Part shown: positions 1 through 19,100 of the stretch, piece after piece
Numbering within the stretch: position 1 is the stretch's first letter
Layout of the letters: the number at the start of each line of letters is the position of its first letter
Assembly (NCBI RefSeq): GCF_964204645.1
Contig: NC_134026.1
Location: forward strand, 13,266,050-13,330,049
Direction: 5' to 3'
Length of the DNA: 64,000 nt
Source of the DNA: Tubulanus polymorphus
Taxonomy: Eukaryota > Animalia > Nemertea
Program-made: the position numbers and the translations under genes
Notes under the pieces: generated by a model
Told to the model about the DNA's origin: nothing
Seen by the model: the letters and a program-made list of their open reading frames with translations, nothing else
Database searches by the model: none

Positions 1-3000
1 AAAGATGATAGTATAAATGGAACAAGTTATATTAAACTACCATTTAAAACTAATGCTGTAATAAATGTACAAAATTTTGATAATAAATGTTTTCTATGGG
101 CTATAATAAGTTGTTTACATCCTGCAACTTATAATATTTGTAGATTAACTCATTATAAACCATTTAAAAATAATTATAAGATAGATAAGTATCCTGTTAG
201 AATTAAAAATATTCCAAAAATAGAAAGAGATAATAATCTTAAAATAAATGATTTAATCAAATTACCAAATAAAAAAGGTAACAATATAAAACATTATACA
301 TTAGAACCTTTATACCTATCAAAAGATTATGATTCAAATAATGTTATAGATATACTATATTATGAAAATCATTATATGTGGATTAAACAAATCGATTTAT
401 TTTTCAAATCAGAAAATGATCACCATAAAATATATCTTTGTAGAAAATGTTTACATAGATTCAGTAATGAAAGTACGTTATTAAATCATAAACAATTATG
501 TGAAAATCATGATTATTGTAAATTAGTTTTACCAAATGAAAAAGATAAAATATTAGAATTCAAAAAATATGATTACAAAAATAAAGTACCATTTGTAATA
601 TATGGAGATTTTGAATCATTAAATAAAGAATTAACAGATAAAGATAGAAAAGAAATATATTATAAAAGAAAGAAATTAAATTCTAATGAAAGTGATTATT
701 CAGAAGAACCACTAAAAACAAATACTATTAAAAAGATTCATCAATCAGCTGCAGCTTTCGGGTTATATATTAAATCTAATTATCCAGAACTAATTAAAAG
801 TGAATATTATAATTATAGAAATGAAAATGTTATTAATCATTTTTGTGACTTATTAATTGAATATGAAATAAGATTTAGTAAATTATTGAATACAAATATA
901 GAAATTATAATGACAGAAGAAGATAAAGAAGAATTTGAGTTTGCAGATAAATGTTATTATTGTAATCAAGTATTCTATTCATCTGATAAAAAGGTAAGAG
1001 ATCATGATCATTTGAATGGAAAGTTTAGAGGCGCGGCGCATGAGAATTGTAACTTACAAGCTAAGAAAATCAATTTTGTTCCAGTAATATTTCATAATTT
1101 ATCAGGATATGATGCACATTTATTTATCAAACAGTTATGCTATAAAATAGAAGAAATCAATAATGAAATAGAAATATTAAATTCAAATAGATCAAAAGAT
1201 AAAATACCAACTTATAAATTTAGAATGTTAGCTAGAACATCTGAGAATTATATATCATTCCAATTTGGTTGTCTAAGATTTATAGATTCATATAGATTTT
1301 TAAATAGTTCATTAAATAACTTATCAAAATCATTAGTTGATGATGAATTAAAGATATTAAAAGAATGTTACCCAAATAATGATGATTTTAAATTAATGAG
1401 ATATAAAGGAGCAATTCCATATTCTTTCTATAAAATTCATAATGATTTTAACATAACTGAATTATTGAAAGAACAATTTTATGATGAATTAAAAAATGAA
1501 TATGTTAAAGATGAAGTCTATAATAGAACATTGAATATTTGGAATCATTTCAAAATAGAAAATCATGGGCAATTAGTAGATTTATATTTAAAATCAGATG
1601 TATTATTATTAACCGATATATTCGAAAGGTTTAGAGATGTAAACCTAAAATATTTCAATATTGATCCTTGTCATTGTTATTCATCGCCAGGATTAACATG
1701 GGATTGTGGATTAAAATTTACAGATATAAAAATGGATTTGTTAATCTTTATGGTTGGGCAATGATGGAACCACAACCTTATGGGATGTTTGAAATAACTG
1801 AAGTTTTACAAATTGATAAATTTGATTGGAAGAAAAGAATCCTAGATATTGCAGATGATTCAGATATTGGTTACTTCTTCGTTGTAGATTTAGAATACCC
1901 TGAAAATATTAAATTCAAATCTAGAAATCTAGCATATTGTCCCGAACATAAAATTGTTAAACATGAAGAATTATCAAATTATCAAAAAAGAATTAAACCC
2001 GATAATCATATTCATACAGAAAAGTTAATGGTAACTCAAGAAGATAAATATAATTACGTTGTGCATTATAGAATGTTAAAATTCTATTTGAATCAAGGAA
2101 TGATATTAAAAAAAGTACATAGATATATTTCATTCAGTCAATCTAAATGGTTAGAAAAATATATAGATTTTAATACTACACAGAGAACTAAATCTAAAAC
2201 TGATTTTGAAAAAGATTATTTTAAATTAATGAACAATGCGTTCTATGGTAAGACTTGTGAAAATATTAGAAATAGAAATGATATTGAGTTAGTTAGTAAT
2301 GGTAAAAGGATAAGGCATTTACAATCATATCCTAAGTTTATAGGTAACAGAATATTTGATGACAATTTAGCAGCAGTTAAGATGAGAAGAACTTCAATGA
2401 AATTTAATAAACCGATTTACGTTGGTGCTTCAGTTTTAGAATTATTAAAGTTATTAATGTATCAATTTTACTATAACGTATTACAACCTCATTTTGGAGA
2501 AAAGCATATAGAAATTTATAGAAACTATACTTTGATACCGACAGTTACATATTAAAGATAAAAACTAATAATATAACTGATGATTTAAAAACATTAAAAC
2601 ATCATTTTGATTTCAGTAACTATCCAAAAAATCATGAATTGTTTACCAATGATAATAAAAAAGTTCCTGGGAAGTTTAAGGATGAATTAGGTGGTGAAGA
2701 AATGATAGAGTTCATTGGTATTAGATCTAAAATGTATAGTTATAAAACTAAAACTCATGAAGCTAAAAAGTTAAAAGGAATTACCAAAAGCGTTGTTGAA
2801 AAGAATATTCATTTCAAAGATTACATCAATTGTATATTCAAAGAAGAAGTTAGAAAACAGAAGATGAGATGTTTAAGATCTGAAGATCATGAAATGTATA
2901 TTGAAGAGATAGAGAAGATAAGTCTAAACCCATTTGATGATAAAAGATATATTTTAGATGATGGAATCCACACAGTCGCCTATGGTTGCAATTTAGATGA

Positions 3001-3067
3001 ATATTTAAAATTCAAAAGAGAAGAAACAAAAGAAAATGAGATTATGAAAAGGATTCTAACGTGTTAA
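1..3067 (+). pseudogene. Protein-primed family B DNA polymerase (pPolB) with inserted endonuclease VII-like domain; disrupted
   Basis: Frame open 1-1764: ExoI YGDFES, endoVII-like CYYC...VRDHDHLNGKFRGAAHENCN, ExoII FHNLSGYD, ExoIII YLKSD. Jumps from KMDLL directly to NLYGWAM at ~1742 (motif A Asp region deleted, frameshift). Motif B KLMNNAFYGK. A ~10-bp tandem duplication (atagaaattt/atagaaacta, ~2508-2527) shifts frame before motif C YFDTDS; then KMY motif and stop at 3067. Confidence 0.93.
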
Positions 3068-3095
3068 TCAATTTCAATAAAAATTTGTATAATAA

Positions 3096-3437
3096 ATGGA
3101 GAGTAAACAAGTACACAGTGAATTCTTAGATAACATTAAAGATACTTCAAGCGTCAAATCTGTAGATTATAAATTTAAAAAACTAACTGAGTTAACAATT
3201 CACAAGAAGTATTTAATTACTAACATTGAAACAATTACTAATAAATATGGAGATAAATTAGTAATTCATTTAGAATATGAAGGATTAAAAGGAAATAAAT
3301 ATAAATTCAGAACTTATTTACCAGATAGATTTCATAGATTATCAAGTGAAGATCTAGAAGAATTATATTCTGGTGATTTCTATTTCATATATAAAGGTAA
3401 GAATGAAAAAGGGCACCATGAAATAGATTTCGAATAA
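3096..3437 (+). CDS. Conserved Polinton hypothetical protein, 113 aa (possibly OB-fold/ssDNA-binding)
   Basis: Intact ORF with TAAATG start; decayed homologues at ~22650-22958, 29077-29404, 35470-35770 and 47573-47927. Fold guess is inference from the beta-rich NKYGDKLVIHL...TYLPDRF pattern. Confidence 0.7.
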   Translation: MESKQVHSEFLDNIKDTSSVKSVDYKFKKLTELTIHKKYLITNIETITNKYGDKLVIHLEYEGLKGNKYKFRTYLPDRFHRLSSEDLEELYSGDFYFIYKGKNEKGHHEIDFE

Positions 3438-3454
3438 GAAAATATGTAAAATAA

Positions 3455-4216
3455 ATGGCGGAATTAAAAGAATACAGAATATTTATAGATTCTAGAAAAC
3501 TTACAAATTATAAATCACATAATTTACTAGTACAATTAGATAGAGAATTCAAGAATTGTGTAGATTTAAAATTAGTTAATATAGGTTTATGTAATTCTTT
3601 TTACAATATATCGAATAAAACTATTGAACATAGAGCTTTTTTAATTTTTAATAAAAATAAAAATGAATGGGTCTATATATATTTAAAACCGGGGTTATAT
3701 AATTTAGATACATTAGCACAAGAAATTAATAGAAAAGCCTGGCACAAATTAGGTAGTAGTTCTGGGTTTAGTATTAGATTTTTAAAAAGTGAGAGTTCTG
3801 ATAGAATAAAGATAAGGTTGTCTTATAGTGAAAAACATAAATTTATGGTAAAAAAACCTATAGCTAAACTGTTAGGAATTCTTCCAGATAGATATTTTAC
3901 AAATATTGACGCTACTACACCAAACTTAATACCTTACACACATTTTTATATTTATTGCAATTTAATCGATCCTACAAAAACATTCGAAGCAACTAAAGAT
4001 ATAACTTGTAATTCTGGTTTACTAAACATTTTACCATTGAAGAATGTTAAAGAATTTGGAACGCAAATAAATTATAATTTAACAGAATGTGATTTCAAAC
4101 CATGCATTCCTCGTTTTAATAATTTTAGATTAGAAATTAGAAATCATAATGGATACTTAATTGATTTAAATAATTTCCCCGTAATTTATGAATTAGTTAT
4201 AAGATGTAAAGAGTAA
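3455..4216 (+). CDS. Minor capsid protein (penton, single jelly-roll)
   Basis: 253 aa; N-terminal IFIDS, central FYIYCNLI and C-terminal FRLEIRNHNGYLIDLNNFPVIYELVI patterns typical of Polinton/virophage pentons. Confidence 0.75.
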   Translation: MAELKEYRIFIDSRKLTNYKSHNLLVQLDREFKNCVDLKLVNIGLCNSFYNISNKTIEHRAFLIFNKNKNEWVYIYLKPGLYNLDTLAQEINRKAWHKLGSSSGFSIRFLKSESSDRIKIRLSYSEKHKFMVKKPIAKLLGILPDRYFTNIDATTPNLIPYTHFYIYCNLIDPTKTFEATKDITCNSGLLNILPLKNVKEFGTQINYNLTECDFKPCIPRFNNFRLEIRNHNGYLIDLNNFPVIYELVIRCKE

Positions 4217-4232
4217 TTTTTCACTTATATAA

Positions 4233-4574
4233 ATGAATATAACTGTTGGACCGAGTATATGTTTTGGGTTTGATTTTAAACATGGTAAAGAAATGAGAAT
4301 TAAACTAAATGATGTAATTACTGATATAAAAAGTAAATCATTTAACAATGCATCAATGATTGATAAAGAAAATTATAATATAGAAAAAGTAATTGATTTA
4401 ATTAAATCACCTTTAGAATATTATGAATTAAATGAAGATGGAATTATTGATGATATTAAAAACATATTAACCAAAATATATGATAATCATATAAGTAGTA
4501 ATGAAATAAATGTTGAATTAATCATAAATAAGATAACTAAATATTTTGATGATAGTAATTTTTTTGATAAATAA
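4233..4574 (+). CDS. Polinton hypothetical protein, 113 aa
   Basis: Intact ORF with TAAATG start; decayed homologue at ~30129-30445. Confidence 0.6.
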   Translation: MNITVGPSICFGFDFKHGKEMRIKLNDVITDIKSKSFNNASMIDKENYNIEKVIDLIKSPLEYYELNEDGIIDDIKNILTKIYDNHISSNEINVELIINKITKYFDDSNFFDK

Positions 4575-4796
4575 ATGAGTGATAATAAGTGGATAATAAC
4601 TGGATTATATAATGGCGCATTACTATCAGTTGGAACGGTTGGTTATTCAATGGTATTAAAAAAAGTATTCAAAATGGGAAGTGTTAATGTTGATAGATTT
4701 GATATCAATGATATCTTAAAATTAACATTAGCACTTACTTTATCTAATTTAACTATTGATTATTTGGAAAAACAAAAATATATTCCTCCCATATAA
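4575..4796 (+). CDS. Small hydrophobic/amphipathic Polinton protein, 73 aa
   Basis: Intact ORF; upstream stop TAA abuts its ATG; two hydrophobic stretches; homologue at ~30450-30660. Confidence 0.6.
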   Translation: MSDNKWIITGLYNGALLSVGTVGYSMVLKKVFKMGSVNVDRFDINDILKLTLALTLSNLTIDYLEKQKYIPPI

Positions 4797-4820
4797 ATGC
4801 TTAATTTTTTTGCTAAATAA

Positions 4821-5243
4821 ATGGCTTCTGCAATTATAACTATTATAGGATCGGCAATTGTTAACGCTTTAGCATTTACTGGTGGCGGTTATTTATTTAA
4901 ACATATTGATAAAAATAGTTCATTAGGAGAACAAAGAAGACATAATTTAGCGTTAGAGAAATATAATAAAGCTGCAGAAGAATATAGAGAAAAGAGACAA
5001 AACTATATGGATTACATCAATAAAGAATTATATGATCAGAAGATTTCACACAGAGATTTTCAATCAGTTGATGATGCAATGAGTTTATATAACGCAGTAA
5101 CAAATAAAGAAAAATTACATCTATACAAACCTAAATTATCAGATTATTATACCCCAAGTAAAGAACAACAGAAATATGAAATAATATGGATTTTAGGTGG
5201 AACAGTTATTGTTATATTTGTTGCTTATAAATTTACTAATTAG
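4821..5243 (+). CDS. Predicted membrane-associated Polinton protein, 140 aa
   Basis: Hydrophobic Gly/Ala N-terminus (MASAIITIIGSAIVNALAFTGGG), coiled-coil-like middle, C-terminal TM (IIWILGGTVIVIFVAY); homologue at ~30685-31090. Confidence 0.65.
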   Translation: MASAIITIIGSAIVNALAFTGGGYLFKHIDKNSSLGEQRRHNLALEKYNKAAEEYREKRQNYMDYINKELYDQKISHRDFQSVDDAMSLYNAVTNKEKLHLYKPKLSDYYTPSKEQQKYEIIWILGGTVIVIFVAYKFTN

Positions 5244-5262
5244 TAATTTTTTTTCTAAATAA

Positions 5263-5697
5263 ATGGAAGATAAAGTTGATAGTATTGATATTATTCCTCA
5301 TGATATAAATAAAACTAAATTAAAAACATATTTAGAAAAACAAATATTAGAATTTGAAAGTGACTTAAAGATAAAAAAGAAAAAATATTTAAAAAGTAAA
5401 ATTATATATTATTTGATTATAAGTGGTTCGGTTACAATTAGTTCTGTAATAACATTTCTAGCAATATTCAGCCCATTAACACCTTTAGCTATATCAATTG
5501 GTGTATTAGGATTAAGTTCAAGTGTTTTAACTGGTATAAAGTCAAAATTAAATATAAAAAGTAATAAAGAAAAAATTAAAACTAATATAAAAGAAATTAA
5601 TAAATTAAAGAACACACTAGATTATATAATAAGTTTAAATGGTCATATAACAGTTGAAGAACAAGATATATTATTAAAAGAATTAATAAATTATTAA
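5263..5697 (+). CDS. Predicted two-TM Polinton protein, 144 aa
   Basis: Two adjacent hydrophobic helices flanked by Lys-rich coiled regions; TAAATG start. Confidence 0.62.
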   Translation: MEDKVDSIDIIPHDINKTKLKTYLEKQILEFESDLKIKKKKYLKSKIIYYLIISGSVTISSVITFLAIFSPLTPLAISIGVLGLSSSVLTGIKSKLNIKSNKEKIKTNIKEINKLKNTLDYIISLNGHITVEEQDILLKELINY

Positions 5698-5713
5698 TTT
5701 TTTAATTATATAA

Positions 5714-6412
5714 ATGGTAGATAGTTTTCCAAAAGCTTTCCAATATAATAAATCAATTAAATATTATATTCCAACAATAGATTTTAATAAAGATATTACA
5801 TATAGAAATGAAGTTTTAGATTCATTAACTAATTTAGAAATTTATGTTACTGAAACTAATAATTTTAATGCAAAGATGGAAAATATATTTCATGTATATT
5901 TAATTAATTTTAAAAAATTGAAAGATGAAAAACAATGGTTATTAAAATCTAATATGAAGTATTGGCAGAATCAATTAAATTTTGCTGTTTATTGTGCAAC
6001 AACAGGTTGTGGAATTAGTTGGAATGATCATTTGAATAATTCTAAATATAAATTAATTCAAAGTTTATTTAGATTTCATACATACTTTCAAATCAGAATA
6101 ATATTAAATGAATTAGAGTGCGCTTTACCAGGATCTAGGTATTTCAAAGAATTAGATAATAATATTAATTTATCAAAGTTTTATAAAATTTGTAATGAAT
6201 TTAATATAGATATAAATAATTCTGATTTTAGAACAAAAATTGGAACAATAAGATCACTTCCTTGCCCTAAAAAGATTGCAGAATATTGTGCACTTCCCAT
6301 ACCATCTAATAGTTTTTATAATATCTATAATAATAAATTAGGTTATGGTAAAATAGAAACAAAGGATTTAGAAACATTAAATTTCAATAAATTATTATGT
6401 AAATGGATGTAG
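5714..6412 (+). CDS. Polinton hypothetical protein, 232 aa
   Basis: Intact ORF with a distinctive WQNQLNFAVYCATTGCGIS block; TAAATG start; function not recognised. Confidence 0.65.
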   Translation: MVDSFPKAFQYNKSIKYYIPTIDFNKDITYRNEVLDSLTNLEIYVTETNNFNAKMENIFHVYLINFKKLKDEKQWLLKSNMKYWQNQLNFAVYCATTGCGISWNDHLNNSKYKLIQSLFRFHTYFQIRIILNELECALPGSRYFKELDNNINLSKFYKICNEFNIDINNSDFRTKIGTIRSLPCPKKIAEYCALPIPSNSFYNIYNNKLGYGKIETKDLETLNFNKLLCKWM

Positions 6413-7872
6413 AAGGTGGAGAAGATTATGAAATGGGAGAAATGGGAAATAATAATGAAGGATATATTGATAATGAACCACAACCTAATTTTAATGAAAC
6501 TAATATTGATAATGATGATGAATCAGCATATAATTCTAATTTAGCAGATAGTGGTTCTAAAGCCCCATCAACAGATGAATTTGATAGAAGAACTAGATCG
6601 AGAATAAATCCTGAAAATTTAAATCAAGGTTTATCAAGACAAGATTTAGAATATAATAAAATAATTTATAAATTCAAACCTGTATTTGAAGAATCTGGAT
6701 ATAATATAAATGACAGAGGCGCCAGATTTTTAGTAGAAAATTTAAAACTTTTTAAAGGTAAATATTATTATCATTTGGATGGTGATTATTATATTGATAT
6801 CACTAATCAAAGGACAAGACTAACTAAAATATTAGCGGAATCAACTTTGCTTAAGTTAGAACTAGATAGAATAAAGAGAATAAGTAATAGTAATGAAATA
6901 ACTGATGTTACACAAGAAGAAAGAGATGATAATATAAGAGTATTTAGTCAAAGAATTGATGACTTATTTGAAATAATCAATGATAATTTAGAAACAGAAA
7001 CAACTTCTGAACAGAATATAACTTCCAAAACTAGTAAACTTAAATCGAATAAAGTTCCAATTGAAAAACTTTTACCGAATGGGTTACTTGATGCAACAGA
7101 TCAACAATTAGAAGATTTAAATATATTTTCTGACAAAGCAATTAGAGAAATTATTAGTATAAGACTTGCATCTGATAAAATTACACATGATAAAAGTATA
7201 AGAGATTTTAAAATTAGAACTTTAGAAAAAGAATTAACTGATAAAAATAAAGAAATAGAACAATTAAAGTCTGATTTAGATCATCAAGTAATTGATGAAA
7301 TAGAATATAGGCAAAAAGAATTACGTTTAGAAAAAGAAAAAGATGATTTAGAATATAACATAGAATTACAAAAAGAAGAAATTAAATTATTGTTAAAATC
7401 ATATGATTATAATATTAATAGATTAAAAGTTATTTTTAAAGATTTGTTGATTAAACCAAATTCTGAAATATCATTAAAAGACAGAATAAGATTATTATTT
7501 AAATTAGAAGGAATAACAATTCTTTCAATTCTAACAGCTGTAACTATGTTATTTACAACAATTGGTTTAGCAATATCAAATGCTTTGAAATCTACTCCTA
7601 CTCCCAATAAACCGGATAAACCTCCAGGCAATAATTCTATACAAGATAAAGTTAAGGATGGTTTAAAGAAATTGGCAAAATATTTATGGGAACTATCTAA
7701 AAAATCTGCTGCAGCATTACCAGGAGTTATTGCATCAATTGTTGGTTTTATATTGAAATCTGCAGGTAATATTCTTAACTTTGCTGCCGAACATATTATT
7801 TTATTTTTAATTACAGTTGTAAGTGCTATTATTTTTGGGTTAGTAAATATGATATCAAAAAATATCAAGTAA
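6403..7872 (+). CDS. Coiled-coil protein with C-terminal hydrophobic helices, 489 aa (possible membrane-active virion protein)
   Basis: Acidic N-terminus, long heptad-like segment, then ITILSILTAVTMLFTTIGLAI, ALPGVIASIVGFIL and IILFLITVVSAIIFGLV; directly upstream of the capsid gene. Confidence 0.68.
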   Translation: MDVEGGEDYEMGEMGNNNEGYIDNEPQPNFNETNIDNDDESAYNSNLADSGSKAPSTDEFDRRTRSRINPENLNQGLSRQDLEYNKIIYKFKPVFEESGYNINDRGARFLVENLKLFKGKYYYHLDGDYYIDITNQRTRLTKILAESTLLKLELDRIKRISNSNEITDVTQEERDDNIRVFSQRIDDLFEIINDNLETETTSEQNITSKTSKLKSNKVPIEKLLPNGLLDATDQQLEDLNIFSDKAIREIISIRLASDKITHDKSIRDFKIRTLEKELTDKNKEIEQLKSDLDHQVIDEIEYRQKELRLEKEKDDLEYNIELQKEEIKLLLKSYDYNINRLKVIFKDLLIKPNSEISLKDRIRLLFKLEGITILSILTAVTMLFTTIGLAISNALKSTPTPNKPDKPPGNNSIQDKVKDGLKKLAKYLWELSKKSAAALPGVIASIVGFILKSAGNILNFAAEHIILFLITVVSAIIFGLVNMISKNIK

Positions 7873-7911
7873 ACATGATAAAAAATAAATAATTAATTTT
7901 TTGTTAAATAA

Positions 7912-9159
7912 ATGAGTGGGAGTTATATCAATCCTTCTAAGAATCATAGAATATCTAATGCTATTAAAGCAGAAAGATCACATCATATAATTACTCATAA
8001 CCCTTCAAATATTAATCCCGATGAAACTTTATATGTGAGGATTCCTCGATTAACACAAAATACTTTTTATGTTCCAAATAGTATTTATTTATCAGCTGAT
8101 ATAAAAGTATCTGGCAATAATAATAATTATGTTGTTGATAATGTTGGAAGATATTTGATTAAAAAGTTAACAATAAAGATTGGTCCAGAAACAGTTTTCT
8201 CATTAGATGATTATAATTTATTTTCACATTATAAAGATTTATGGTTAACTAAAGAAAATAGAAATAATATGATATTTCAAGGAATTCAATCAGAAAACCA
8301 AAATAAATTAAGATCAGAAGCTAATAGCGCAATATTAACTAATGATGTAGATAAATTGATAAAAAGTATATATGGAAGCAAATATAAAATTCCATTAGAC
8401 TTTGAATTGATAAATAATAATGCACCTTTATATAAATACGCAATTCAAGAAGATATTATATTTGAGATAACATTTGCTCCTGTAAATGAAATTGTATTAT
8501 CTAGCGTTAATAAAGATATGAGTTATAAATTATCGAATATATGTTTAGAATATGATACAGTAACTGATGAAAATATTTCAAGTATAATTCAAACTAAATA
8601 TAATCAAGGGTTTTCATTATTATATGATTATATTGATAAATTTAAAACTGTAACTATTAATGCAAATGATGAAATAATTAATGAGAATATTAACTTTCCT
8701 AGAAGATCTATTAAAGGTATATTAATATTTTTTACCATTGGAACGTATACTAATGGCGCAATAAATGTTGACAATTATTATAATCCTGAAATATCAAAAG
8801 TAGAAATAACTATCGAAGGAATAGCAAATAAAATATTTTGTCAAGGAATGAGAATGATAGATCAATGGCCAGAAATTAGAAAACATTTTATGAATGAAAA
8901 AGTAAAATCATCTGAAAATTGTAACATTAATCAAATTGATTATTATACCGGTAATAAATATGCATTATGGTTAGATTTTAGAACAACTGAAGATAATTCA
9001 TTACATGGTTCTGGGAAAAAACTACAAAATACAAAAGATGGAATACAATTATTCATGAAAAAGAATAAAGGAATCAAAAAATTTAAAATGCATATTTATA
9101 TTATATCTGACGCGCAATTAAATATTGTAAATTCACAATTAGATAGTGTTATGTATTAA
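7912..9159 (+). CDS. Major capsid protein (double jelly-roll)
   Basis: 415 aa beta-rich ORF; size, position and motifs (LYVRIP...SIYLSADIKV...NVGRYLIKKLTIKIG...LSNICLEYD...ALWLDFRT) fit Polinton major capsid proteins. Confidence 0.8.
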   Translation: MSGSYINPSKNHRISNAIKAERSHHIITHNPSNINPDETLYVRIPRLTQNTFYVPNSIYLSADIKVSGNNNNYVVDNVGRYLIKKLTIKIGPETVFSLDDYNLFSHYKDLWLTKENRNNMIFQGIQSENQNKLRSEANSAILTNDVDKLIKSIYGSKYKIPLDFELINNNAPLYKYAIQEDIIFEITFAPVNEIVLSSVNKDMSYKLSNICLEYDTVTDENISSIIQTKYNQGFSLLYDYIDKFKTVTINANDEIINENINFPRRSIKGILIFFTIGTYTNGAINVDNYYNPEISKVEITIEGIANKIFCQGMRMIDQWPEIRKHFMNEKVKSSENCNINQIDYYTGNKYALWLDFRTTEDNSLHGSGKKLQNTKDGIQLFMKKNKGIKKFKMHIYIISDAQLNIVNSQLDSVMY

Positions 9160-9181
9160 AACAACAATCAAGCATTATTGT

Positions 9182-9220
9182 TTTAATACGTATTTAATAC
9201 ATATTTAATATGTATTAAAT
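9182..9220. repeat. 11-bp tandem repeat (TTTAATACRTA) forming a hairpin just after the capsid gene
   Basis: tttaatacgta/tttaatacata/tttaatatgta; 9193-9203 is the exact reverse complement of 9209-9219. Confidence 0.75.
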
Positions 9221-9264
9221 TGAAATATTTCAAATTTTAACTTTGATAAAAATTTATATAATAA

Positions 9265-10064
9265 ATGGAAGGAGGTAAAGTATATAAACATATTCCATAC
9301 ATCGATACACATGAAAATAATGATGGTTTATATTATGTAATACCTTGTAATATAGCTTTGATATTTGATCCTATTTTTAAAAATTATAAAACTAAACTAA
9401 TAGAAATCGATAATAATAAAAGTGATGTTGTTGATAATTTAATTAATGAAATTGATAATAATGTAATACCTACTACATCTGTAATACCTACTACCTCTGT
9501 AATACCTTCTACATCTAATAATGCAATAATATTGAATGTTGGTGAAAATAGAAATTATTGTGGATATTGTAATGGTGAATTTCAAACGCTCCATCAAATT
9601 GGAATAATCATATGAATACAAGTTCACATATTAATAATGTTATAAAAAGTGTTGGTATGAGAGAATTTATAGAACACCCATTTAATTATGTTACAAAGTT
9701 TGTTTTAAATAAAAAAGTAGATGGTAAAGATTTATATAAAGATTTATTAGGTGAATTTTTATCTAAGGAACCTAGTAATGATGAATTAGATTTATCTGCT
9801 GCTAAAAAAATATTAGAATCAAGCGTTGTAAATATAATATTAAGGTTAAACACTAAGAAAGGTGATAATGAAAATGGCGCCATATGGCACCCACATGGTG
9901 ATAATAAAGATTCTATGAAACTGAAATCAGAAAATGAAGATATAGTTGAGATGACTAATAATTATATCAATAAACCAATTATTGCGAATAAAGTGTTAGA
10001 GTCTGATGACGAAATAGAGTCTGATGATGAAAGTGATTCAGAAAGTAATTATCTAACACTCTAA
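9265..10064 (+). pseudogene. Zinc-finger protein split by a 1-nt frameshift (ORFs 9265-9615 and 9612-10064)
   Basis: Restoring one base at ~9580 joins CGYCNGEF to SNAPSNWNNHMNTSSH, a C-x2-C-x13-H-x5-H finger; also a VIP(T/S)TS x3 repeat and an acidic tail. Confidence 0.65.
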
Positions 10065-10131
10065 AGTAATAAAGGTTGAAAATTGTATAAAATAATAGTA
10101 AATAAAAAAGGGGGTTTTAAGTATTTATACA

Positions 10132-10175
10132 TCTAATACGTATTTAATACATATTTAATACGTATCTAATACATA
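10132..10175. repeat. Second array of the 11-bp T(T/C)TAATACRTA repeat where the + and - gene blocks converge
   Basis: tctaatacgta tttaatacata tttaatacgta tctaatacata, between the stop codons at 10064 and 10189. Confidence 0.75.
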
Positions 10176-10188
10176 GGTATACAAATAG

Positions 10189-10803
10189 TTATTTTATAAA
10201 TTTATATTCATATGGAAATTGTAGTCTCAGAAGTAATTTGGAACCTTTATTATTTTTTAATTTATTCATATATTCATCATGTAATTCAGGAGGTATAATT
10301 TGATTTTCTTCCAATGATTGTTGCATAGATTTTCTATCTTTGTTGTAGAATAAAACTAGAAATCTTATATTCTCTCTAAAATCTTTCACAATTGAATTAT
10401 ATTTTTGATTTAAAACCCATGTTGTTATCCCAAAATGTCTACCAGAGAAAGCTAAATAACATAACTCACTTTCTCTAATTTTAGAATCATGTAAATTTGC
10501 GCAATCATCGATAATAAATAATGTATTAGATCCTTTATAAATATCTAATGCAATTTTTATACAATTATCTAAATTATCTTTCACTGTTTTAGAATTTAAT
10601 ATAATAAACTTTTTATCTTTAAAAACTATATCTCTACTATACGTTTCATTCATTTCATAAGTTGGGCAGAATAATATTATATTATCGAAATGATTTTTAT
10701 AAATAGTTTCTAATAAATATAATATGAAGTGTGTTTTACCACAATTTGTAACTCCAGTAACTAACATATTATGTGGTTCAAATATAAACAAATCTTTATT
10801 CAT
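10189..10803 (-). CDS. A32/FtsK-like genome-packaging ATPase
   Basis: Walker A GVTNCGKT, Walker B FIIDD, SGRHFGIT arginine motif, downstream LNQ and FRENI; 204 aa intact. Confidence 0.92.
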   Translation of the reverse strand: MNKDLFIFEPHNMLVTGVTNCGKTHFILYLLETIYKNHFDNIILFCPTYEMNETYSRDIVFKDKKFIILNSKTVKDNLDNCIKIALDIYKGSNTLFIIDDCANLHDSKIRESELCYLAFSGRHFGITTWVLNQKYNSIVKDFRENIRFLVLFYNKDRKSMQQSLEENQIIPPELHDEYMNKLKNNKGSKLLLRLQFPYEYKFIK

Positions 10804-11896
10804 TTATTCTTTTAATTTTACTAGATAAAATCCATTCATTAAATTTATCATCATATCCTTTATATTTCACCAGAGAATATTTCTTACCGCGTAATGTTTT
10901 AGTTTTCAATACCTTTTCTATTTTGTATTCTATTTCATCTGGATTTGGTACTAATGAAAATTCTTGTTCATAAAAATAACCTAATATTTCTTCATCTTTT
11001 AAATCAAACAATTTATAAACAAATGGTTTAGTTAATATTATCTTTTTAATTTTAAATATTTCTTCAGTAAAATTAGGGGTATAACCTTTATAAAATGTTT
11101 TTCGATATTTAGAAATTCTAACATGTTGTCCTATTTTAAATTTAGGTTCTCCAAAATCATGTGTAACAAATGCTCCATATAAATTATTCCAAACTATTTC
11201 TGAATTTTCTTCTTTTCTAGCTTGTATAGGTTTCATATTTATAGAACTATGTTTAGAATTATTATAACCTTTAACTAAATCATCTAATATATTTTTAGAC
11301 TCATCGATATATTTATATGTTTCATTAGCGGTGAAATATTTCCACATTCTAGTTTTCAATGTTTTATTAAATCTTTCTATAACAGATGCTTTTTTATCTG
11401 AATGTGTTGAAAAATATTCTACATCGTTATCAGTTAATAGTTTTTTAAAATGTTTGTTATAAAATTCTTTACCTTCATCAAATTGTATTTTATCTGGGAT
11501 AGCTTCTTTAAATATTAATTTGAAAGAATTTGTAACTTCTATACCAGTTTTATTTTTAATCGGGATACTCCATGCGTATCTACTGAATATATCTATAACA
11601 TTTAGTATCCAAAAATATCCTTTGTTATATTCTTCTAAGTTTTTCACATCAATTAAATCAGCTTGCCATTGTTGGTCAATATATGAAACCATTACTTTTC
11701 TTGTTAAATATTTTTTATCCATCTTTTTATGAATTTGATATGTGGGTTGATTTTGTAACCATGATTTTAATTCACTATATTTTATTTTTTCTTTATCAGA
11801 TTTAATTTTATCCCATAATTCCGAAACACTTGAATATGAAACTTCACTTTCTGGGTTATAATGTAAATCTCTTAAATATTGTTCTTTTTTCATCAT
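10796..11896 (-). CDS. Retroviral-like (rve) integrase with C-terminal chromodomain
   Basis: DDE triad WQADL / IQFDEGKEF / VIERFNKTLK; chromodomain YKIEKVL...LVKYKGYDDKFNEWI; intact 366 aa. Confidence 0.95.
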   Translation of the reverse strand: MMKKEQYLRDLHYNPESEVSYSSVSELWDKIKSDKEKIKYSELKSWLQNQPTYQIHKKMDKKYLTRKVMVSYIDQQWQADLIDVKNLEEYNKGYFWILNVIDIFSRYAWSIPIKNKTGIEVTNSFKLIFKEAIPDKIQFDEGKEFYNKHFKKLLTDNDVEYFSTHSDKKASVIERFNKTLKTRMWKYFTANETYKYIDESKNILDDLVKGYNNSKHSSINMKPIQARKEENSEIVWNNLYGAFVTHDFGEPKFKIGQHVRISKYRKTFYKGYTPNFTEEIFKIKKIILTKPFVYKLFDLKDEEILGYFYEQEFSLVPNPDEIEYKIEKVLKTKTLRGKKYSLVKYKGYDDKFNEWILSSKIKRINE

Positions 11897-11899
11897 ATT

Positions 11900-12283
11900 T
11901 TAATCCATTAATAATAATTTAGATTTAGTTTCAATGGCCTTATGATTTGACTTATTTTCTGGTATGATAGGTTTACTGTCCGGATAACTAAGTTTCCGAT
12001 TGTCATCTTTATCATTAGATTTGAATTTTGATTTATATATTACACCGGATAATATAATAACTGTTACTAATCCAATTGTAATATATAATTTATAATTACT
12101 TCCAGCATTAGAAGAATCAGATGGATTATTATTTGAATCAATATCAGATAAAGTCTGTGATTCATTTATATCAGTTAATTTCTTTTTCTTAGCTTTTTTT
12201 AATTCTGAAGATCTTTTTCCTAATTCTCTTGCCCATCTAATTTGTTTCTCGGATCTAGCCTTTTTCTTAACTCCATCACTCAT
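11900..12283 (-). CDS. Single-TM Polinton protein, 127 aa
   Basis: Basic N-terminus (KKARSEKQIRWARELGKRS), TM LYITIGLVTVIILSGVIY; homologue at ~32740-33120. Confidence 0.65.
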   Translation of the reverse strand: MSDGVKKKARSEKQIRWARELGKRSSELKKAKKKKLTDINESQTLSDIDSNNNPSDSSNAGSNYKLYITIGLVTVIILSGVIYKSKFKSNDKDDNRKLSYPDSKPIIPENKSNHKAIETKSKLLLMD

Positions 12284-12887
12284 TTATTTTAGTTAATTTT
12301 TGTTCTGATTCATTTTCTGTTTCACTGTTTGGTTGTAGTACAGCGTCATCTGTTTCGTTCTTACCTAATTTATATTCCATAGGCTTGATATTCGAAAATG
12401 TTATAACTCCAGTAGAAATCAATGTCATAACCGATCCTAATTGAAATGAAGCATATCCAACCCATTCTTGTAATTCAGTCATAACTAAGTAGTCATTTTT
12501 CAAATCACTATATAATTTATTTTCATCATCAATTGGTATTAACTGGTTACATAACTTAGAATAACATTTGACAATACCATTCGAAATAGAATCATTTATT
12601 TTAGATAATCTTGCCTCTTCATAAATCTTAAAATATTTGATTACTTTGTCTTTGTTCATATTATCTAATTCTTGAAAAGTTATTGTTTTACCAATAAACT
12701 CTTTAGATTTGCCACTCGCAATCAATAGTTCGAGTTGATGCTTAGAATATAAATAGTACTCGTAATCGATATTACTATCAATTTTATTATCACATTTAGT
12801 TGCCACATTATCATTATCATCTGTTAGACCTAAATCTTCCAAAGTTTTTTCAACTTTAACATTATTCTTATTCGATTTCTTAGACAT
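12276..12887 (-). CDS. Polinton hypothetical protein, 203 aa
   Basis: Intact ORF with TAAATG start; homologue at ~33215-33495. Confidence 0.65.
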   Translation of the reverse strand: MSKKSNKNNVKVEKTLEDLGLTDDNDNVATKCDNKIDSNIDYEYYLYSKHQLELLIASGKSKEFIGKTITFQELDNMNKDKVIKYFKIYEEARLSKINDSISNGIVKCYSKLCNQLIPIDDENKLYSDLKNDYLVMTELQEWVGYASFQLGSVMTLISTGVITFSNIKPMEYKLGKNETDDAVLQPNSETENESEQKLTKINE

Positions 12888-13134
12888 TTATTTCAGAGAA
12901 ATTTAATAAGAATAGTATTATAAGTATTCTTCAAATGATACTAGATAGTTAAAGTTAAAGAATTCTAGTATTGACTACTGATACTAGCTATTTGAATTTA
13001 AAGAATTTCTATTTGAATCTATTCAAAATATAAAGTATTCTTTTTTGAAAAGAAAATATTAAAAATATAATAGAAATAATAGATAGTTGAAGGTGTGTAA
13101 TTTTTATTATATTTTATCTAAAATCTATTATTCT

Positions 13135-13899
13135 TTAACCACTCATTAAAGACTCAACGTATTGTTCATTATGTGTTGAATTCCATAATTCAATAATTTT
13201 TTTTGCTTTTTCCAGTTGATTCAAATATAACTGTAAATCTAGTTTATTAAATTTTATTTTATTTTCTTTCTTTTCAAGAGGTCTTAGATTCTTCCAATTC
13301 CATATTAACTTCTGATTGTATTCATCATTCATGTCAAATTTAGATATTGGTAACACATGATCAATATGAAAATAATTGCCATAATTATTTATATTCATTT
13401 TATCATCGAATTGAAATATTATCCATGATTTGAAGAATTCATCCGAACAATCTAGTAAATTAGATAATGTGTATGAGTGACTGTCTTTACTGAATAATTG
13501 TGTTAATCTAGTCCTTAAGCATTGTTTCAATCTAAAATTAAGATCTGTTTGATATTTTTCATTTTGATAATTGTTAATATTCTCTCTATTATTTTCCCTC
13601 CATTCTCTCATATATTCTGGGTGATTTTCTCTCCATTGTTTATTATAAACTTTCCATTTTTCTGGATTATTTTCTCTCCATTGTTTATCTTTTTCTTTAT
13701 ATTTTTCTGGATTATTTGCTCGATATTGTTTATTATATAGTTTATAACAAGTTTTGCAATAACAACTTTTACCATCTTTAGTTTTTTTATGATTATGAAA
13801 TTCTGTTAATGATTTATTCAATTCACACTTATTACATTTCTTATAGCATATATTTATTACACCATTATTGTTTATATTTATAGTTTGTGTACTTTCCAT
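13135..13899 (-). CDS. HNH-family endonuclease with N-terminal Cys zinc ribbon and basic repeats
   Basis: CNKC...CKTC; repeated KQWRENNPE; C-terminal HIDHVLPIS...WKNLRPLEKKENKIK HNH-type motif, an architecture common in large-DNA-virus nucleases. Confidence 0.8.
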   Translation of the reverse strand: MESTQTININNNGVINICYKKCNKCELNKSLTEFHNHKKTKDGKSCYCKTCYKLYNKQYRANNPEKYKEKDKQWRENNPEKWKVYNKQWRENHPEYMREWRENNRENINNYQNEKYQTDLNFRLKQCLRTRLTQLFSKDSHSYTLSNLLDCSDEFFKSWIIFQFDDKMNINNYGNYFHIDHVLPISKFDMNDEYNQKLIWNWKNLRPLEKKENKIKFNKLDLQLYLNQLEKAKKIIELWNSTHNEQYVESLMSG

Positions 13900-14033
13900 T
13901 TAAAATATATATTTTTATTAAATTGGTTAATAATTTTAGAATCCTCTTCCATTTCTTCGACCAACATCATCCTTTTTCATTCCTCGCTGCTTTTGATAAG
14001 TCAGTTTCAATTCCTTGATATCTAAATAATACC

Positions 14034-14353
14034 ACTGGGCAAAAACGCTCGGGTGAGAGCGAGTTGGCTTCTGCGCATGCGCTAATCATAATTATATATT
14101 CATTCCATAAATTCTGTAAAATAGAAACGACCGACATAAAATATCAAAACGTGTTCGCACTAGGCAAAACCGCTCTATTAGGAGCGTTTTTGCTTAATGC
14201 GCATGCGCTAATTATAATTATATATTTATTATTGAAACGACCGAACATAAAAATTCAAACACATGTGCACTAGGTAAAACCGCTCTTATAGTAGCGTTTT
14301 TGCTTAATGCGCATGCGCTAATCATTATTGAAACGACTGAACATAAAAATTCA
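14034..14353. repeat. Three ~115-bp tandem repeats, each with a GCGCATGCGC palindrome
   Basis: Repeated CACTRGGYAAAA(A/C)CGCTC...TGCGCATGCGCTAAT...GAAACGAC blocks upstream of the HNH gene; GCGCATGCGC is the NRF1-type core. Confidence 0.75.
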
Positions 14354-14799
14354 CAAATCAGATTTACACAATACATTATACAAGTTATTCAGTCATTTCT
14401 TCTAATACATCATTTGATTTCTATAAATACAATTTATAATTACAAACATTTTTTCAATTGCTGGTAAATATTTAACTATATCAATAAATGTTAAACTTAA
14501 TCATTGGAGTTTTAATGTTTTTGAAATTCTTGTATTTCTTCTTCGATCTTTTGGTGATTCTATTGGTTTGATATCCATTGCTGTTGATTCCTCAGTCAGA
14601 AAGAGTATCTTGAGTTTCTCTATCGCTTCTTGATGCGTATGACTTTTTATTAATCTAAAAGATATTAGCGGCAACTCTAGCCATCTAAAAGATATACTAA
14701 ATACACTTAAATATATCTAAAGGTTTCATATTTAATAGCCTTAATAACTACAACAAACAGTACTTACATATTTAGATTTATAATTGTAAACTATAAACT

Positions 14800-14985
14800 C
14801 CTAATTTCGTTTCGAAAGATAGAATATCCTGAGCACAATATTACAGCGTATATTCATTTCCGGGGCGATTTCTAGAATGACACGTCGTTAATTATGCCAC
14901 GTCATCTAGTTCCGGTTCTAGAGTGTTCTCTCTCTCTCTCTGCATGTTTGTAATAATGAGTCATAATGTCTCGGCGTCATAGTAA
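14800..14985. promoter_or_regulatory. GC-richer island with clustered stress-response-like motifs
   Basis: TTTCGTTTC 14805 (IRF-like), TTCTAGAA 14870 (HSE-like), GCCACGTCA 14896 (UPRE/CRE-like), TGAGTCA 14957 (AP-1). Function inferred. Confidence 0.35.
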
Positions 14986-15094
14986 CAGCTGTAACAGCTG
15001 TGAATTTATAGATTTATTCCATAGCTCTGTACATTGAATGTATATAGGCTCAAATATAATCATGTTCTAGTATAAACATCAGATCCTTGATATC

Positions 15095-15301
15095 AAATTC
15101 CTCAACGTATTGTTGATTATTTGGATCATTATTCCATAATTCAATAAATGTCTTTGCTTTTGTTAACTGTTCTGAATATAACTGTAAATATTCTAGTTTC
15201 AATTTATTCTCTAAATGTGTTATAGTTTAATTGTGTCTTGCTTTTTGAGACTTATCTATATCGATATTACATGTTGGGCAGTAGTACTTATTTGCTTCCA
15301 T
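15095..15301 (-). pseudogene. Chimeric remnant: first ~37 codons of pPolB joined to the 3' end of an HNH paralogue
   Basis: Minus strand MEANKYYCPTCNIDIDKSQKARHN*..HLENKLKLE matches the PolB start at 47967; 15100-15190 aligns with 13153-13238. Confidence 0.65.
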
Positions 15302-15381
15302 TTTAATATCAAATTTTTTATTAAAATTGATTTTAGAAGTTCAATGATTTAAATGTTATTCATTTATATGAATATTTTAAG

Positions 15382-15785
15382 AGTAATAGGGGTAATGGGC
15401 TTTCGGGTTAAAGGTTGAATGGTCGAGTTCATTAAAAAACATATATTAAAAGTAATTAAAAACTATAATATATTTTCATAACCGTGTGTATTTCAGTTGA
15501 ACAATAGAATAATTATTATCATTTGAATATATTTGATTATATGAATTTGTGTATTGTAAATAAATCAATTGGTCGCGGAGCGGAGCGGTAGCGAAGCGGA
15601 GCGACCAATTGATTTAATACAATATGCTTTTTAGATTATTGATATCTTAGAATAAATATTTAGTTTTAATATAAAATACACACGGTTATGAAAATATATT
15701 ATAGTTTTTAATTACTTTTAATATATGTTTTTTAATGAGCTCGACCTTTCGACCTTTGATCTGAAAGCCCATTACCCCTATTACT
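15382..15785. repeat. 404-bp fold-back palindrome, right terminus of copy A
   Basis: ~110-bp outer arms AGTAATAGGGGTAATGGGCTTTC... / ...GAAAGCCCATTACCCCTATTACT, inner stem TAAATCAATTGGTCGC / GCGACCAATTGATTTA, loop GGAGCGGAGCGGTAGCGAAGCGGA. Confidence 0.9.
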
Positions 15786-16156
15786 AATTCATTTTGTGTT
15801 TCATTACAATTGAGTAATATAAATATATAATATTTTAAAAACATGATCTTTTGGTTTTGTTTTCTTCAGGTATTCACTTAAATAACTATCATGTTAAATG
15901 TTCTGGGCAATATGGTAAGTTTCTTGTTTTAAACTTTTTGTTATCAGGATATTCTAAATCAACTACAAAGAAATAACCAATTGGTGCTTCATCTTCTAAA
16001 CTCATTGCGCTTTCCCAATTAGTTTTATCATCATTTTCAACTTCTGTTAATATAAAATTTGTGTACGGTTGAGGTTGCATCATTGCAAGTATTTAAGTAT
16101 AAATCAACTTATTCACCATGATTTTTTATCTTAAAGTGATTCCAAATATCTAATTA

Positions 16157-19100
16157 GGGTCGCGGGGGACAAAACCAAAATAATGAATTGTCGCGGGCGA
16201 TAAAACCGTTATAAAGAATTGTCACGGGCGATAAAACCAAAATAATGAATTATCGCGGGCGATAAAACCAAAATATTGAATTGTCGCGGGCGACAAATCA
16301 AAAAAAAAAATTGTCGTGGACGGCAAAAACAAAATATAAAACCAAAATAATGAATTGTCGCGGGCGATAAAACCGTAATAATGAATTGTCGCGGGCGATA
16401 AAACCGTAATAATGAATTGTCGCGGGCGATAAAACCAAAATGATGAATTATCGCGGGCGATAAAACCAAAATATTGAATTGTCGCGGGCGACAAAACCAT
16501 TTTGGTTTTGTCGCCCGTGACAATTCATTATTTTGGTTTTATCGCCCGTGACAATTCATTATTTTGGTTTTGTCTACCCAACAATTCTTTTTTTGGTTTT
16601 GTCGCCCGCGACAATTCATTAGTTTGGTTTTTGTCGCCCGCGACAATTCATTATTTTGGTTTTATCTCCAGCGACAATTCATTATTTTGGTTTTGTCGCC
16701 CGCGACAATTCTTCTTTTTGCTTTTGTCGCCCGAGACAATTCATTTTTTTTTTTAAATATTTTGTTTTTGTCGTCCGCGCCAATTTTTTTTTGGTTTTGT
16801 TGCCCGCGACAATTCACCATTTTGGTTTTGTCGCCCGCGACAATTCATTAGTTTGGTTTTGTCGCCCGCGACAATTCAATATTTTGTTTTTGTCGCCCGC
16901 GACAATTCATTACTTTGGTTTTATCTCCAGCGACAATTCATTATTTTGGTTTTGTCGCCCGCGACAATTTTTTTTTGGTTTTGTTGCCCGCGACAATTCA
17001 TTATTTTGGTTTAATCACCCGCGACAATTCAATATTTTGGTTTTATCGCCCGTGATAATTCATTATTTTGGTTTTATCGCTCGCGACAATTCATTATTTT
17101 GGTTGTGTCGCCCGAGACAATTCATTATTTTGGTTTTATCGCCAGCGACAATTCATTATTTTGGTTTTATCGCCCACGACAATTCATTATTTTGGTTTTG
17201 TCGCCCACGACAATTCACCATTTTGGTTTTATCGCCAGCGACAATTCATTATTTTGGTTTTATCGCCCGCGACAATTCATTATTTTGGTTTTGTCGCCCC
17301 GAAAATTCTTTTTTGGTTTTGTCGCCCGCGACAATTCATTAGTTTGGTTTTGTCTCCCGCGACAATTCAATATTTTGGTTTTATCGCCCGCGACAATTCA
17401 TTACTTTGGTTTTATCTCCAGCGACAATTCATTATTTTGGTTTTGTCGCCCGCGACAATTCATTATTTTGGTTTTATATTTTGTTTTTGTCGCCCGCGAC
17501 AATTCATTATTTTGGTTTTATTTTTTTTTTGTCGCCCGCGATAATTCAATATTTTATATTTTGTTTTTGTCGCCCGCGACAAATCATTATTTTGGTTTTA
17601 TCGCCCGCAACAATTCATTATTTTGGTTTTGTCGCCCGCGACAATTCATTATTTTGGTTTTGTCGCCCGCGAAAATTCATTATTTTGGTTTTATCGCACG
17701 TGACAATAAAATATTATGTTTTTGTCGCCCGAGACAATTCATTACTTTGGTTTTATTGCCCGCGACAATTCATAGTTTGGTTTTATCGCCCGCGAAAATT
17801 CATTAGTTTGGTTTTATCGCCCGCGACAATTCAATATTTTGGTTTTATCACCCGCGACAATTCAATATTTTTGTTTTATCGCCCGCGACAATTCAATATT
17901 TTCGTTTTATCACCCGCGACAATTCATTAGTTTGGTTTTGTCGCCCGCGACAATTCTTTTTCAGTTTACTTGGGACTTTAGTCCCAGCGGGCTATTGCGT
18001 TCACTTTTCGTCCGTCCGTCTGTCCATAGACGGAATCCAGTTATTTCGGGAAGTTTTGAAGACGCTTCAAGGTAATGTCTTGATACTTGGTTTAAACATG
18101 TATCTACCCTAGACACATCGTCAGCCCAAAAACTGGCCCTGTCAGATTCAAGATGGTCGACTGGCAGCCATTGTTGTTTGCCATAATCAGCACTTTTTAA
18201 ACATTTTCGAAGTTTTCGTGGGAAATTTTGAAGACGCTTTGATCAATTACCTTGATCTTTCGGATATATGTGAATCCCCCCAGGCCCAATCTACCAAAGG
18301 CCCATCAGCATAAGAAAATTGGGTCGATCTGACTCAAGATGGCCGTCCTATGACCTTTTTAGTGCCCAAAAATGTCAATTTTGGCCAGAATTCTAGGTCC
18401 TGTAGCTTCCTACTGGTTTGCCATTTCTCATTGCAATTGCTGATGGGTATTCTTTAGAGAGGGATGTTTTATACCTGGGACAGGTATTTTGATCAGACAA
18501 TTATGACGCAATTGGCGGCCATCTTGGTGTCATCAGTACTCATTCGTAGGTGGGAAAAAGTTTTTCCACATTAAATTGATACCTAAGCATATTGTGTTAC
18601 TATATTCAATTGGAAAGTTGTAGCCCATAACGTGTTCTATGATTTTGGTGAGTTTCAAGGTCATTGGTTTTTGTATGTGGCCATCAGGGGGCGTTGAATA
18701 ATACAATAACTTAATATCGCTATATTATATTTGTACCAAGGCATATTTTGTTACCATGATCAATTGCAAAGTTGTAGTTCATGACATCGTCTATGATTGT
18801 GGTGAGTTTTTAAGGACATTAGTTATTCCATATAGTCACCAGGGGGCGTTGAATAGTAGAAAAGCTTAGTTTTTCCTTATTAGATTGGTACCTAGGCATA
18901 GTTTGTTACCATGATCCATTGTTAAGATGTAGTTCATGACATCGTCTATGATTGTGGTGAGTTTTTAAGGACATTAGTTATTCCATATAGTCACCAGGGG
19001 GCGCTGAATAGTAGAATGGCTTAGTATTTCCTTATTAGATTGGTACCTAGGCATATTTTGTTACTATGATCAATTGCAAAATTGTATTTCATGACATGTA

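Follow-up and report, generated by a model that had tools for sequence, protein, structure and literature searches.

Mavirus and the type 4 endogenous mavirus-like elements (EMALEs) of Cafeteria burkhardae are integrated, multi-copy elements with a family B DNA polymerase that is primed by protein (pPolB), an rve integrase, a capsid and an ATPase. According to the available parts of two reports, their genes carry one promoter motif, which a cytoplasmic giant virus also has in its late promoter, and in Cafeteria only the integrated type that carries the giant-virus late motif is woken by the giant virus (PMC8547959, PMC10945749). We take the Cafeteria result as the precedent for inferring a helper virus from a promoter. 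Here we analyze an element of similar make-up in a 64,000-nucleotide stretch of Tubulanus polymorphus DNA (contig NC_134026.1, positions 13,266,050 to 13,330,049; hereafter the window). Positions 1 to ~15785 of the window are the right-hand part of a Polinton-type element with 23% GC (copy A), in which pPolB, rve integrase, capsid and ATPase are all present and almost every gene begins at TAAATG. The mavirus group differs in its protist host, its TCTA motif and a Mimiviridae-type helper shown experimentally, whereas the window element has an animal host, a TAAATG motif fused to the start codon and no protease found in the part seen.

A second group for comparison are the entomopoxvirus-associated Polinton-like viruses (PLVs) AHEV_PLV1, AHEV_PLV2, CBEV_PLV1 and Ca_PLV1, recovered from occlusion bodies (Barth et al., 2024; PMC11296320). 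In the accessible portion of that report they resemble the window element as small AT-rich Polinton-like genomes proposed to be poxvirus parasites, with one relative integrated in a beetle chromosome; they differ in a cysteine protease and a pX-like protein, in a PLA2-like lipase found in the three moth elements, and in that no rve integrase is reported. A profile search of the copy A open reading frames (ORFs) gave no match to the protease, lipase or pX-like gene, and an unaligned comparison by eye with the capsids in table S2, as far as that table was accessible, showed no likeness to the capsid of the element. The evidence also differs in kind, being co-purification for the PLVs and promoter anatomy in a germline family here; the word promoter is absent from the main text and readable supplement of PMC11296320. 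The window element is classed neither as a virophage nor as an entomopoxvirus-associated PLV.

Closer in gene content are Maverick-Polintons and the protease-less Polinton-like elements of animals, which share with it pPolB, an rve-chromo integrase, a double jelly-roll capsid, an A32 ATPase, convergent gene blocks and high copy number; three metagenome loci (L017, L026 and L048) have the same capsid family and likewise gave no protease match among their 20 ORFs. The yeast elements pGKL1 and pGKL2, in the accessible part of PMC6211774, are also pPolB elements and use a TAAA(N) initiator that gives 5' poly(A) leaders, but they lack a capsid and an integrase, have an RNA polymerase encoded on pGKL2 and rely on an upstream element of the early type. 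The term promoter had no matches in PMC11131425, PMC11161782, 10.64898/2026.10.13.758929 and 10.1101/2024.03.23.586382, nor in the available parts of PMC8502044 and 10.64898/2026.06.19.733378. We found no published report of a TAAATG motif in an animal Polinton in a search that mostly left subscription journals aside, so that absence from print is unproven. Virophage-style promoter sharing and poxvirus-associated PLVs are already known, the latter from other lineages and without promoter analysis; the present case is a germline-integrated animal Polinton lineage. The reading we favor, with moderate confidence, is that the family is a multi-copy integrated animal Polinton whose two-part start signal is a post-replicative promoter read by the RNA polymerase of a large cytoplasmic DNA virus that co-infects the cell; a poxvirus, or a relative not yet described, is the likeliest candidate.

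When gene starts in copy A were analyzed, TAAATG was found at 14 of the 16 ORFs of at least 70 amino acids (aa) that lie 3' of the pPolB pieces. The out-of-frame sense ATGs within the ORFs of copy A are preceded by TAA in 13 of 194 cases (binomial p 4e-15 for 14/16), and one of the 28 non-element ORFs of the window has TAAATG. The two starts that lack it are 9612 and the integrase, which reads TAAAAT-ATG and has TAAATG in L001, L002 and the copy C homologue at 32729. ORFs 9265 and 9612 each align to one single gene in L001 and L004, and 9612 is therefore the second half of a split gene; the 14 out of 15 gene starts counted by a first-pass annotation, made by a model from the letters alone, is thus a fair figure. 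Re-reading of the sequence located TAAATG at all 14 of its listed starts with correct coordinates. Its further observations held as well: the integrase exception and its copy C homologue, the T6-N7 spacing at 4821, 5263 and 5714 and T6-N6 at 7912 (a type that also fits 4575), the position of starts 6403, 10803 and 12283 within the upstream ORF, and TAAATG in decayed copies at 22958, 24667 and 29421. Other starts of decayed copies have drifted, for example to TAAAATG at 29078 and ~47967. The T-run that it placed before the motif is long in about half of the copy A starts only, while the remainder have an A-run, and the common feature is a T at -9 (13/14).

The genes of copy A are as follows.

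1 to 3067, plus strand: pPolB with an endonuclease VII-like domain in three ORFs (376, 1698, 2702); PF03175 E 1.3e-5 and PF02945 E 1.5e-4, both below the curated cut-off
3096 to 3437, plus strand: 113-aa ORF with an A-run TAAATG start; possible single-stranded DNA-binding protein (SSB), as a lead only
3455 to 4216, plus strand: 253-aa ORF with an A-run TAAATG start; candidate minor capsid protein from its size and beta-rich pattern
4233 to 5697, plus strand: four short ORFs (4233, 4575, 4821, 5263), hydrophobic in several cases; all four have a T-run TAAATG start
5714 to 6412, plus strand: conserved gene of 232 aa here and 395-442 aa in relatives; T6-N7-TAAATG
6403 to 7872, plus strand: 489-aa coiled-coil and membrane protein; TAAATG start within the upstream ORF
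7912 to 9159, plus strand: double jelly-roll capsid; AF2 pLDDT 87, Foldseek matches to SGIV (E 4e-16), PBCV-1 (E 9e-16) and mavirus (3e-11)
9265 to 10064, plus strand: split gene (ORFs 9265, 9612) with an A-run TAAATG at 9265; single ORFs in L001 and L004
10189 to 10803, minus strand: A32-type packaging ATPase (PF04665 E 9e-12); TAAATG start within the integrase end
10796 to 11896, minus strand: rve integrase with a chromodomain (PF00665, above cut-off; PF00385); start TAAAAT-ATG
11900 to 12887, minus strand: two conserved ORFs (12283, 12887) with TAAATG starts
13135 to 13899, minus strand: HNH/endonuclease VII-like nuclease with an A-run TAAATG; PHROG 1035 E 1e-17

The 5' end of the polymerase gene and the left end of the element lie outside the window, and roughly ten ORFs besides the named genes are small or unassigned. 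In the Foldseek search the iridovirus and chlorovirus capsids rank before that of mavirus, and such ranks are no phylogeny. The lead for ORF 3096 comes from its homologue P0189, whose nearest named Atlas match is a phi29 SSB cluster (score 0.84, family on 44% of members). A single-sequence fold of the ORF 3455 product reached pLDDT 33, and ORF 5263 has a weak SLATT 2TM match (E 0.007). The search with the HNH nuclease ended in a very large unnamed family with no donor found. Pfam and PHROG profiles matched no RNA polymerase among the 19 copy A ORFs, and no unassigned ORF exceeds 489 aa, which supports, for the part of the element seen, the earlier statement that it encodes none. A protease of the adenain or Ulp1 type, which is characteristic of Polinton group 1, was likewise not matched among these 19 ORFs, in an element whose left end is outside the window.

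Next, we examined whether the motif is a trait of the clade in the best 80 of 250 confirmed metagenome loci (L numbers) fetched by capsid alignment. Thirteen loci with capsid identity of at least 50%, not all of them independent cases (L007/L008 and L010/L011 are closely similar pairs), use TAAATG at 48 of their 58 starts. In the 64 other, more distant loci the count is 7 of 374, and in their AT-rich subset of ten it is 2 of 54; together with the low count in non-element ORFs, this is the enrichment that the first-pass annotation had proposed to look for. A share of 40% TAAATG starts is reached by 12 of the 13 close loci and by none of the 64 distant ones. The motif is retained across GC contents of 20-44% (44% in L006) and across altered gene order. 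A quick capsid tree unites the loci that bear the motif in a single clade (SH-aLRT 98), whose sister groups lack it; this tree comprised 60 capsids from the window and the loci and 21 database proteins with no named references, and left out L030, L047, L050, L079 and 17 other loci without a capsid ORF of 300 aa.

Outside the main clade, TAAATG heads 7 of the 8 starts of three divergent loci (L047, L049 and L050; 34-36% capsid identity), whose head-to-head pairs are separated by 14 and 29 nt; in the tree L049 has a long branch and its place is unsure. L102:1-9034 is a second Polinton-type contig, with TAAATG at 7/7 starts, two of them a necessary result of the search pattern; the integrase and polymerase it encodes are like those of the window element (28-38% identity to the copy A polymerase), its ATPase had no match and its upstream profile is different. 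The motif is therefore restricted to one capsid clade and two small groups, and as a feature of the clade it is real and strong. AT-rich members of the wider family (L014, L018, L022, L023) use AAAATG, an ordinary translation context (6/9 in L023). Capsid homologues of 54% identity in cluster P0046 are labelled Bartonella on contigs of <2 kb and are probably contamination. Capsid and ATPase queries found no relatives in viral contigs or in the phage collection, the capsid query found none in genome contigs, and a first sequence-pattern scan yielded no element-like contig. In the close relative L002 a deoxynucleoside kinase gene (10343-10981, minus strand) stands behind a T-run TAAATG, which would suit cytoplasmic replication; a search with it found no named viral neighbor.

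The sequence around the motif is built like a promoter. In the clade that includes the window element, TAAATG is found at 62 of 76 starts, and a T lies at -9 from TAAAT in 56 of these 62 sites (90%) and at -10 in 46 (74%). G or C occupies 8 of 310 core positions (-13 to -9), compared with 20% further upstream and in the spacer, and 47 internal TAAATG sites have no such upstream pattern. The triplet before ATG is TAA in 69 cases, TGA in one and TAG in none, as against 57/13/7 for real stops (p 2e-8). In seven head-to-head gene pairs both genes have the motif, each on its own strand, and the two ATGs are 14-30 nt apart (one L010 partner has 71 aa). Five of the misses retain TAAA(A)T at most 11 nt before the ATG, which fits a transcription initiator rather than a codon context. 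The sites come in two flavors, a T-run form (capsid, small membrane genes) and an A-run form (3455, 9265 and the ATPase in 5/5 orthologues); flavor consistency within orthologues is modest (permutation p 0.026, inflated by shared descent). G at +4 is seen in 69% and C at +5 in 37% of sites. We concluded that the motif is a two-part signal, consisting of an A/T-only core at -13 to -9, a short spacer and TAAATG, and that neither AT content nor stop-start coupling accounts for it. By its anatomy it likely works as a leaderless post-replicative promoter for a viral RNA polymerase.

Three other lines were tried and set aside. Trans-splicing was rejected as there is no AG acceptor before the ATG. 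Internal AATAAA, considered as a test of nuclear transcription, does not discriminate, with an observed to expected ratio of 0.97 in the clade and 0.99 in AT-rich relatives. TTTTTNT is halved on coding strands of the clade (26 vs 53) and was considered as evidence for a pox early terminator; this was rejected since all T- and A-runs are depleted. On the coding strands of the clade, T5 and T6 runs occur at 0.53 and 0.24 of expectation, compared with 0.87 and 0.82 in AT-rich relatives, and the T-runs of the clade are concentrated at promoters.

The right end of the element, the other copies and the host side of the window are as follows.

14002 to 15083, no strand: ~1.08-kb segment absent from other copies (60 reads of run X6 skip it), with GC-richer 110-bp repeats and a (CT)n tract
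15382 to 15785, no strand: 404-bp imperfect palindrome with a GC-rich center, the likely right end (1,504 reads with unlike continuations at 15785)
20065 to 25400, minus strand: decayed copy B, with polymerase remnants, a 3096 paralogue and TAAATG at 22958, 24667 and 24783
28900 to 36060, no strand: decayed family copies (C region), with TAAATG at 29421 and 32729, the latter being the integrase start
47500 to 50130, plus strand: decayed copy D, with a 3096 homologue followed by the polymerase 5' part behind an A-run TAAAATG
Host side: fibronectin type II exon (36054-36575, minus strand), DIRS-like retroelement with RT, ALOG and tyrosine recombinase (39219-44089), DUF1759 retroelement (51046-52074), and 31-bp and 154-bp tandem repeats (16100-19650 and 42169-42834)

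The fibronectin type II exon and the retroelements of the flanks suggest an animal host. Polintons have terminal inverted repeats that begin with AG and a 6-bp target duplication; of the two ends the window contains the likely right one, which reads AGT inward from 15785. A hairpin could form from its palindrome, of which decayed forms lie at 25334-25380, 28920-28990 and 35818-36058. The (CT)n tract at ~14930-14942 was rejected as the right end because reads put the end at 15785. Segment 14002-15083 is likely a later insertion; three 110-bp repeats in it contain TGCGCATGCGC, which resembles a host NRF1 site. An A-run promoter module lies just inside the right end (~15297-15333, minus strand), and reads connect it, on the opposite strand, with 3079 and 3437; shortened copies therefore retain the end and its promoter. 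The same module is found at 29042-29078, 47933-47967 and 3066-3096, preceding different first genes in different copies. In raw DNA reads of run X6 most element bins have a depth of 290-980 and host single-copy bins 5-10, which puts the family at some tens to ~150 copies, and 2,046 of 59,526 reads are at least 99% alike, the copies being mostly 90-99% alike. Amplification, suggested by a very high X1 contig depth, was dropped: that depth is ~29 times the raw-read ratio, an excess that overlapping very short contigs of a polymorphic repeat would give.

If the signal is read by a helper, transcription by the helper RNA polymerase would start inside TAAAT after helper DNA replication, and slippage would give the mRNA a 5' poly(A) leader and hence A in place of T at -3. 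Such a leader would explain a T at -3 in the DNA alongside a G at +4. These otherwise leaderless, A-leader mRNAs would then be translated. Integrated copies would be silent in uninfected cells; upon helper infection the element would use its own polymerase for replication, its own capsid for packaging and its own integrase for renewed integration, in the manner of mavirus. The T-run and A-run flavors may, with weak support, correspond to late and intermediate promoter classes, and a role in host defense is possible. Dependence on some large cytoplasmic DNA virus is, in our view, quite probable; for a helper of the pox type in particular the case is evenly poised.

Vaccinia late promoters, in the available parts of the sources, have TAAAT(G) over the start codon, a core at a distance of 5-7 bp and, ~10 nt upstream, a conserved T (PMC11980589, PMC5294985), and intermediate promoters have TAAA and an A-rich core (PMC12917281, PMC5294985); slippage on a TAAA initiator yields a 5' poly(A) leader (PMC6211774). 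The element shares with these the initiator over the start codon, an A/T-rich core one helical turn upstream, a relaxed spacer and the T- and A-rich flavors. It is more uniform than two poxvirus stretches that we sampled (recognized by the Pfam families NPH-II, G9/A16, E10, L1R, L3 and intermediate factor), and its signal is known from sequence alone. In the two pox contigs TAAATG stands at 24 of 44 starts; these 24 mixed-class sites, among which no chordopoxvirus is included, made up the pox matrix. They have the same G/C-free window (3.3%), and 13 of 24 have the TATAAATG form, which is found at 21 of 62 element sites and at 1 of 54 sites in ten iridovirus-like loci. We take these ten loci to be iridovirus-like from the family distributions of MSV199, DUF5757 and DUF5850, with no tree. 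One record of each kind, pox and iridovirus-like, initially came to light through its TAAATG pattern, which introduces a slight bias. At 46 of its 62 sites the element fits the pox matrix better than the iridovirus-like one, under which its sites average -1.9 bits.

Several observations weigh against a helper of the pox type, or against helper dependence itself. TAAATG is not pox-specific, since it stands at 54 of 166 starts, about a third, in the ten iridovirus-like loci, and 37 further sites were found in more distant iridovirus-like relatives. The commonest element form is AATAAATG (29/62), which makes up 52 of the 54 iridovirus-like sites and 3 of the 24 pox sites. Against the distant iridovirus-like set the pox matrix is higher at 38 of 62 sites only, and with three matrices the element sites split into 27 pox, 23 other large-virus and 12 iridovirus-like. 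The pox matrix is in itself nearly devoid of information (leave-one-out mean -0.33 bits); under the element matrix pox sites reach -1.2 bits; and the T peak lies at -9, one base away from the -10 position that is reported in vaccinia. No sequence of a helper turned up, nor was one tied to the host. Copy A is broken in three genes (the polymerase, in pieces, and two others), its unseen left end might carry an extra gene, and a family of its copy number and diversity could spread with no helper. The first-pass proposal of a pox-type promoter and a pox-like helper therefore stands as to architecture and not as to pox specificity. The element fits pox promoters better than iridovirus-like ones, not decisively, and a pox-type helper leads but is not established.

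Under the same mechanism the helper might be some large DNA virus other than a poxvirus, for instance an iridovirus-like one, either free or endogenous, with late genes at (A)ATAAATG, an explanation that we consider unlikely and yet the best of the alternatives. The frequency of TAAATG in the iridovirus-like loci, their A-run core at -13 to -10 with a relaxed spacer and the predominance of AATAAATG in the element speak for it, and other giant-virus contigs found by pattern scans have TAAATG at 25-67% of starts, a range that their selection inflates. Many aquatic invertebrates are known hosts of iridoviruses. Poxviruses, according to the accessible part of one source, are known only from insects and vertebrates (PMC4542343). 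The difference in TATAAATG is hard to reconcile with such a helper, as are the A-rich iridovirus-like core, where that of the element is T-rich, the T at -9 (21/54 versus 56/62) and the negative mean score. In L242, L244, L249, L253, L256-L260 and relatives, which are iridovirus-like, a third of starts are at a strict AATAAATG; no such motif for iridovirus-like viruses was seen in the available passages of a promoter review or in the literature search.

It is distinctly improbable that the motif is a lineage-specific initiator for host Pol II, or a translation signal for nearly leaderless mRNAs, in an element that is autonomous and nuclear, as Polintons in general are taken to be. The G at +4 and C at +5 look like translational selection, the high copy number fits such an element, and the NRF1-like TGCGCATGCGC repeats would suit it, but they sit in the segment that is absent from other copies. 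Coral polintoviruses of unspecified clade are transcribed with no known helper, as the accessible part of PMC11131425 describes. A host-type use of the motif is, however, contradicted by its rarity in the non-element ORFs (1/28) and AT-rich relatives (2/54), no TATA-like peak was seen 25-30 nt upstream of the motif, and the head-to-head gaps of 14-30 nt are too short for two ordinary promoters.

A very slim chance remains for the promoters being a relic, in which the ancestor of the clade depended on a helper and present copies spread or persist with none. The broken polymerase and two damaged genes of copy A, the decay of the other window copies with some drifted starts, and the small number of reads at least 99% alike agree with it. 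The motif is nevertheless sharp in elements with 50-57% capsid identity and different gene order, which argues for long-term selection, and a relic would alter the date and not the mechanism. Least probable, and largely refuted, is a by-product of tight packing by fusion of an upstream stop or AATAAA to the next start: TAA is the upstream stop at 4574/4575 and AATAAA overlaps 30 of 69 starts, but a true stop-start is seen in 1 of 14 only, TAG and TGA are unused, 39 of 69 starts lack AATAAA, and the motif also heads divergent pairs and the first genes of blocks, with no upstream gene on the same strand.

It is an open question by what means animal Polintons are expressed and if any needs a helper virus, and inducible virophage defense has been shown only in protists. 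Helper dependence, if true, would make this family a virus parasite that an animal inherits. The clade also predicts that its host animals harbor a large cytoplasmic DNA virus not yet recognized. A sharp and cheap test is offered by its 30-bp promoter, for which a start site and a 5' poly(A) leader are predicted. One capsid family is split into lineages with and without the signal, so that promoter scans can sort Polintons by likely lifestyle. In a wider and rather doubtful extension, animals may carry inherited, multi-copy, virophage-like Polintons wired to pox late transcription, which would stay silent until a poxvirus infects, here in a host group with no known one, and would then wake and curb it; the promoter would tell for each lineage which virus is parasitized, and it would have been switched more than once (in the main clade, in L047/L049/L050 and in L102).

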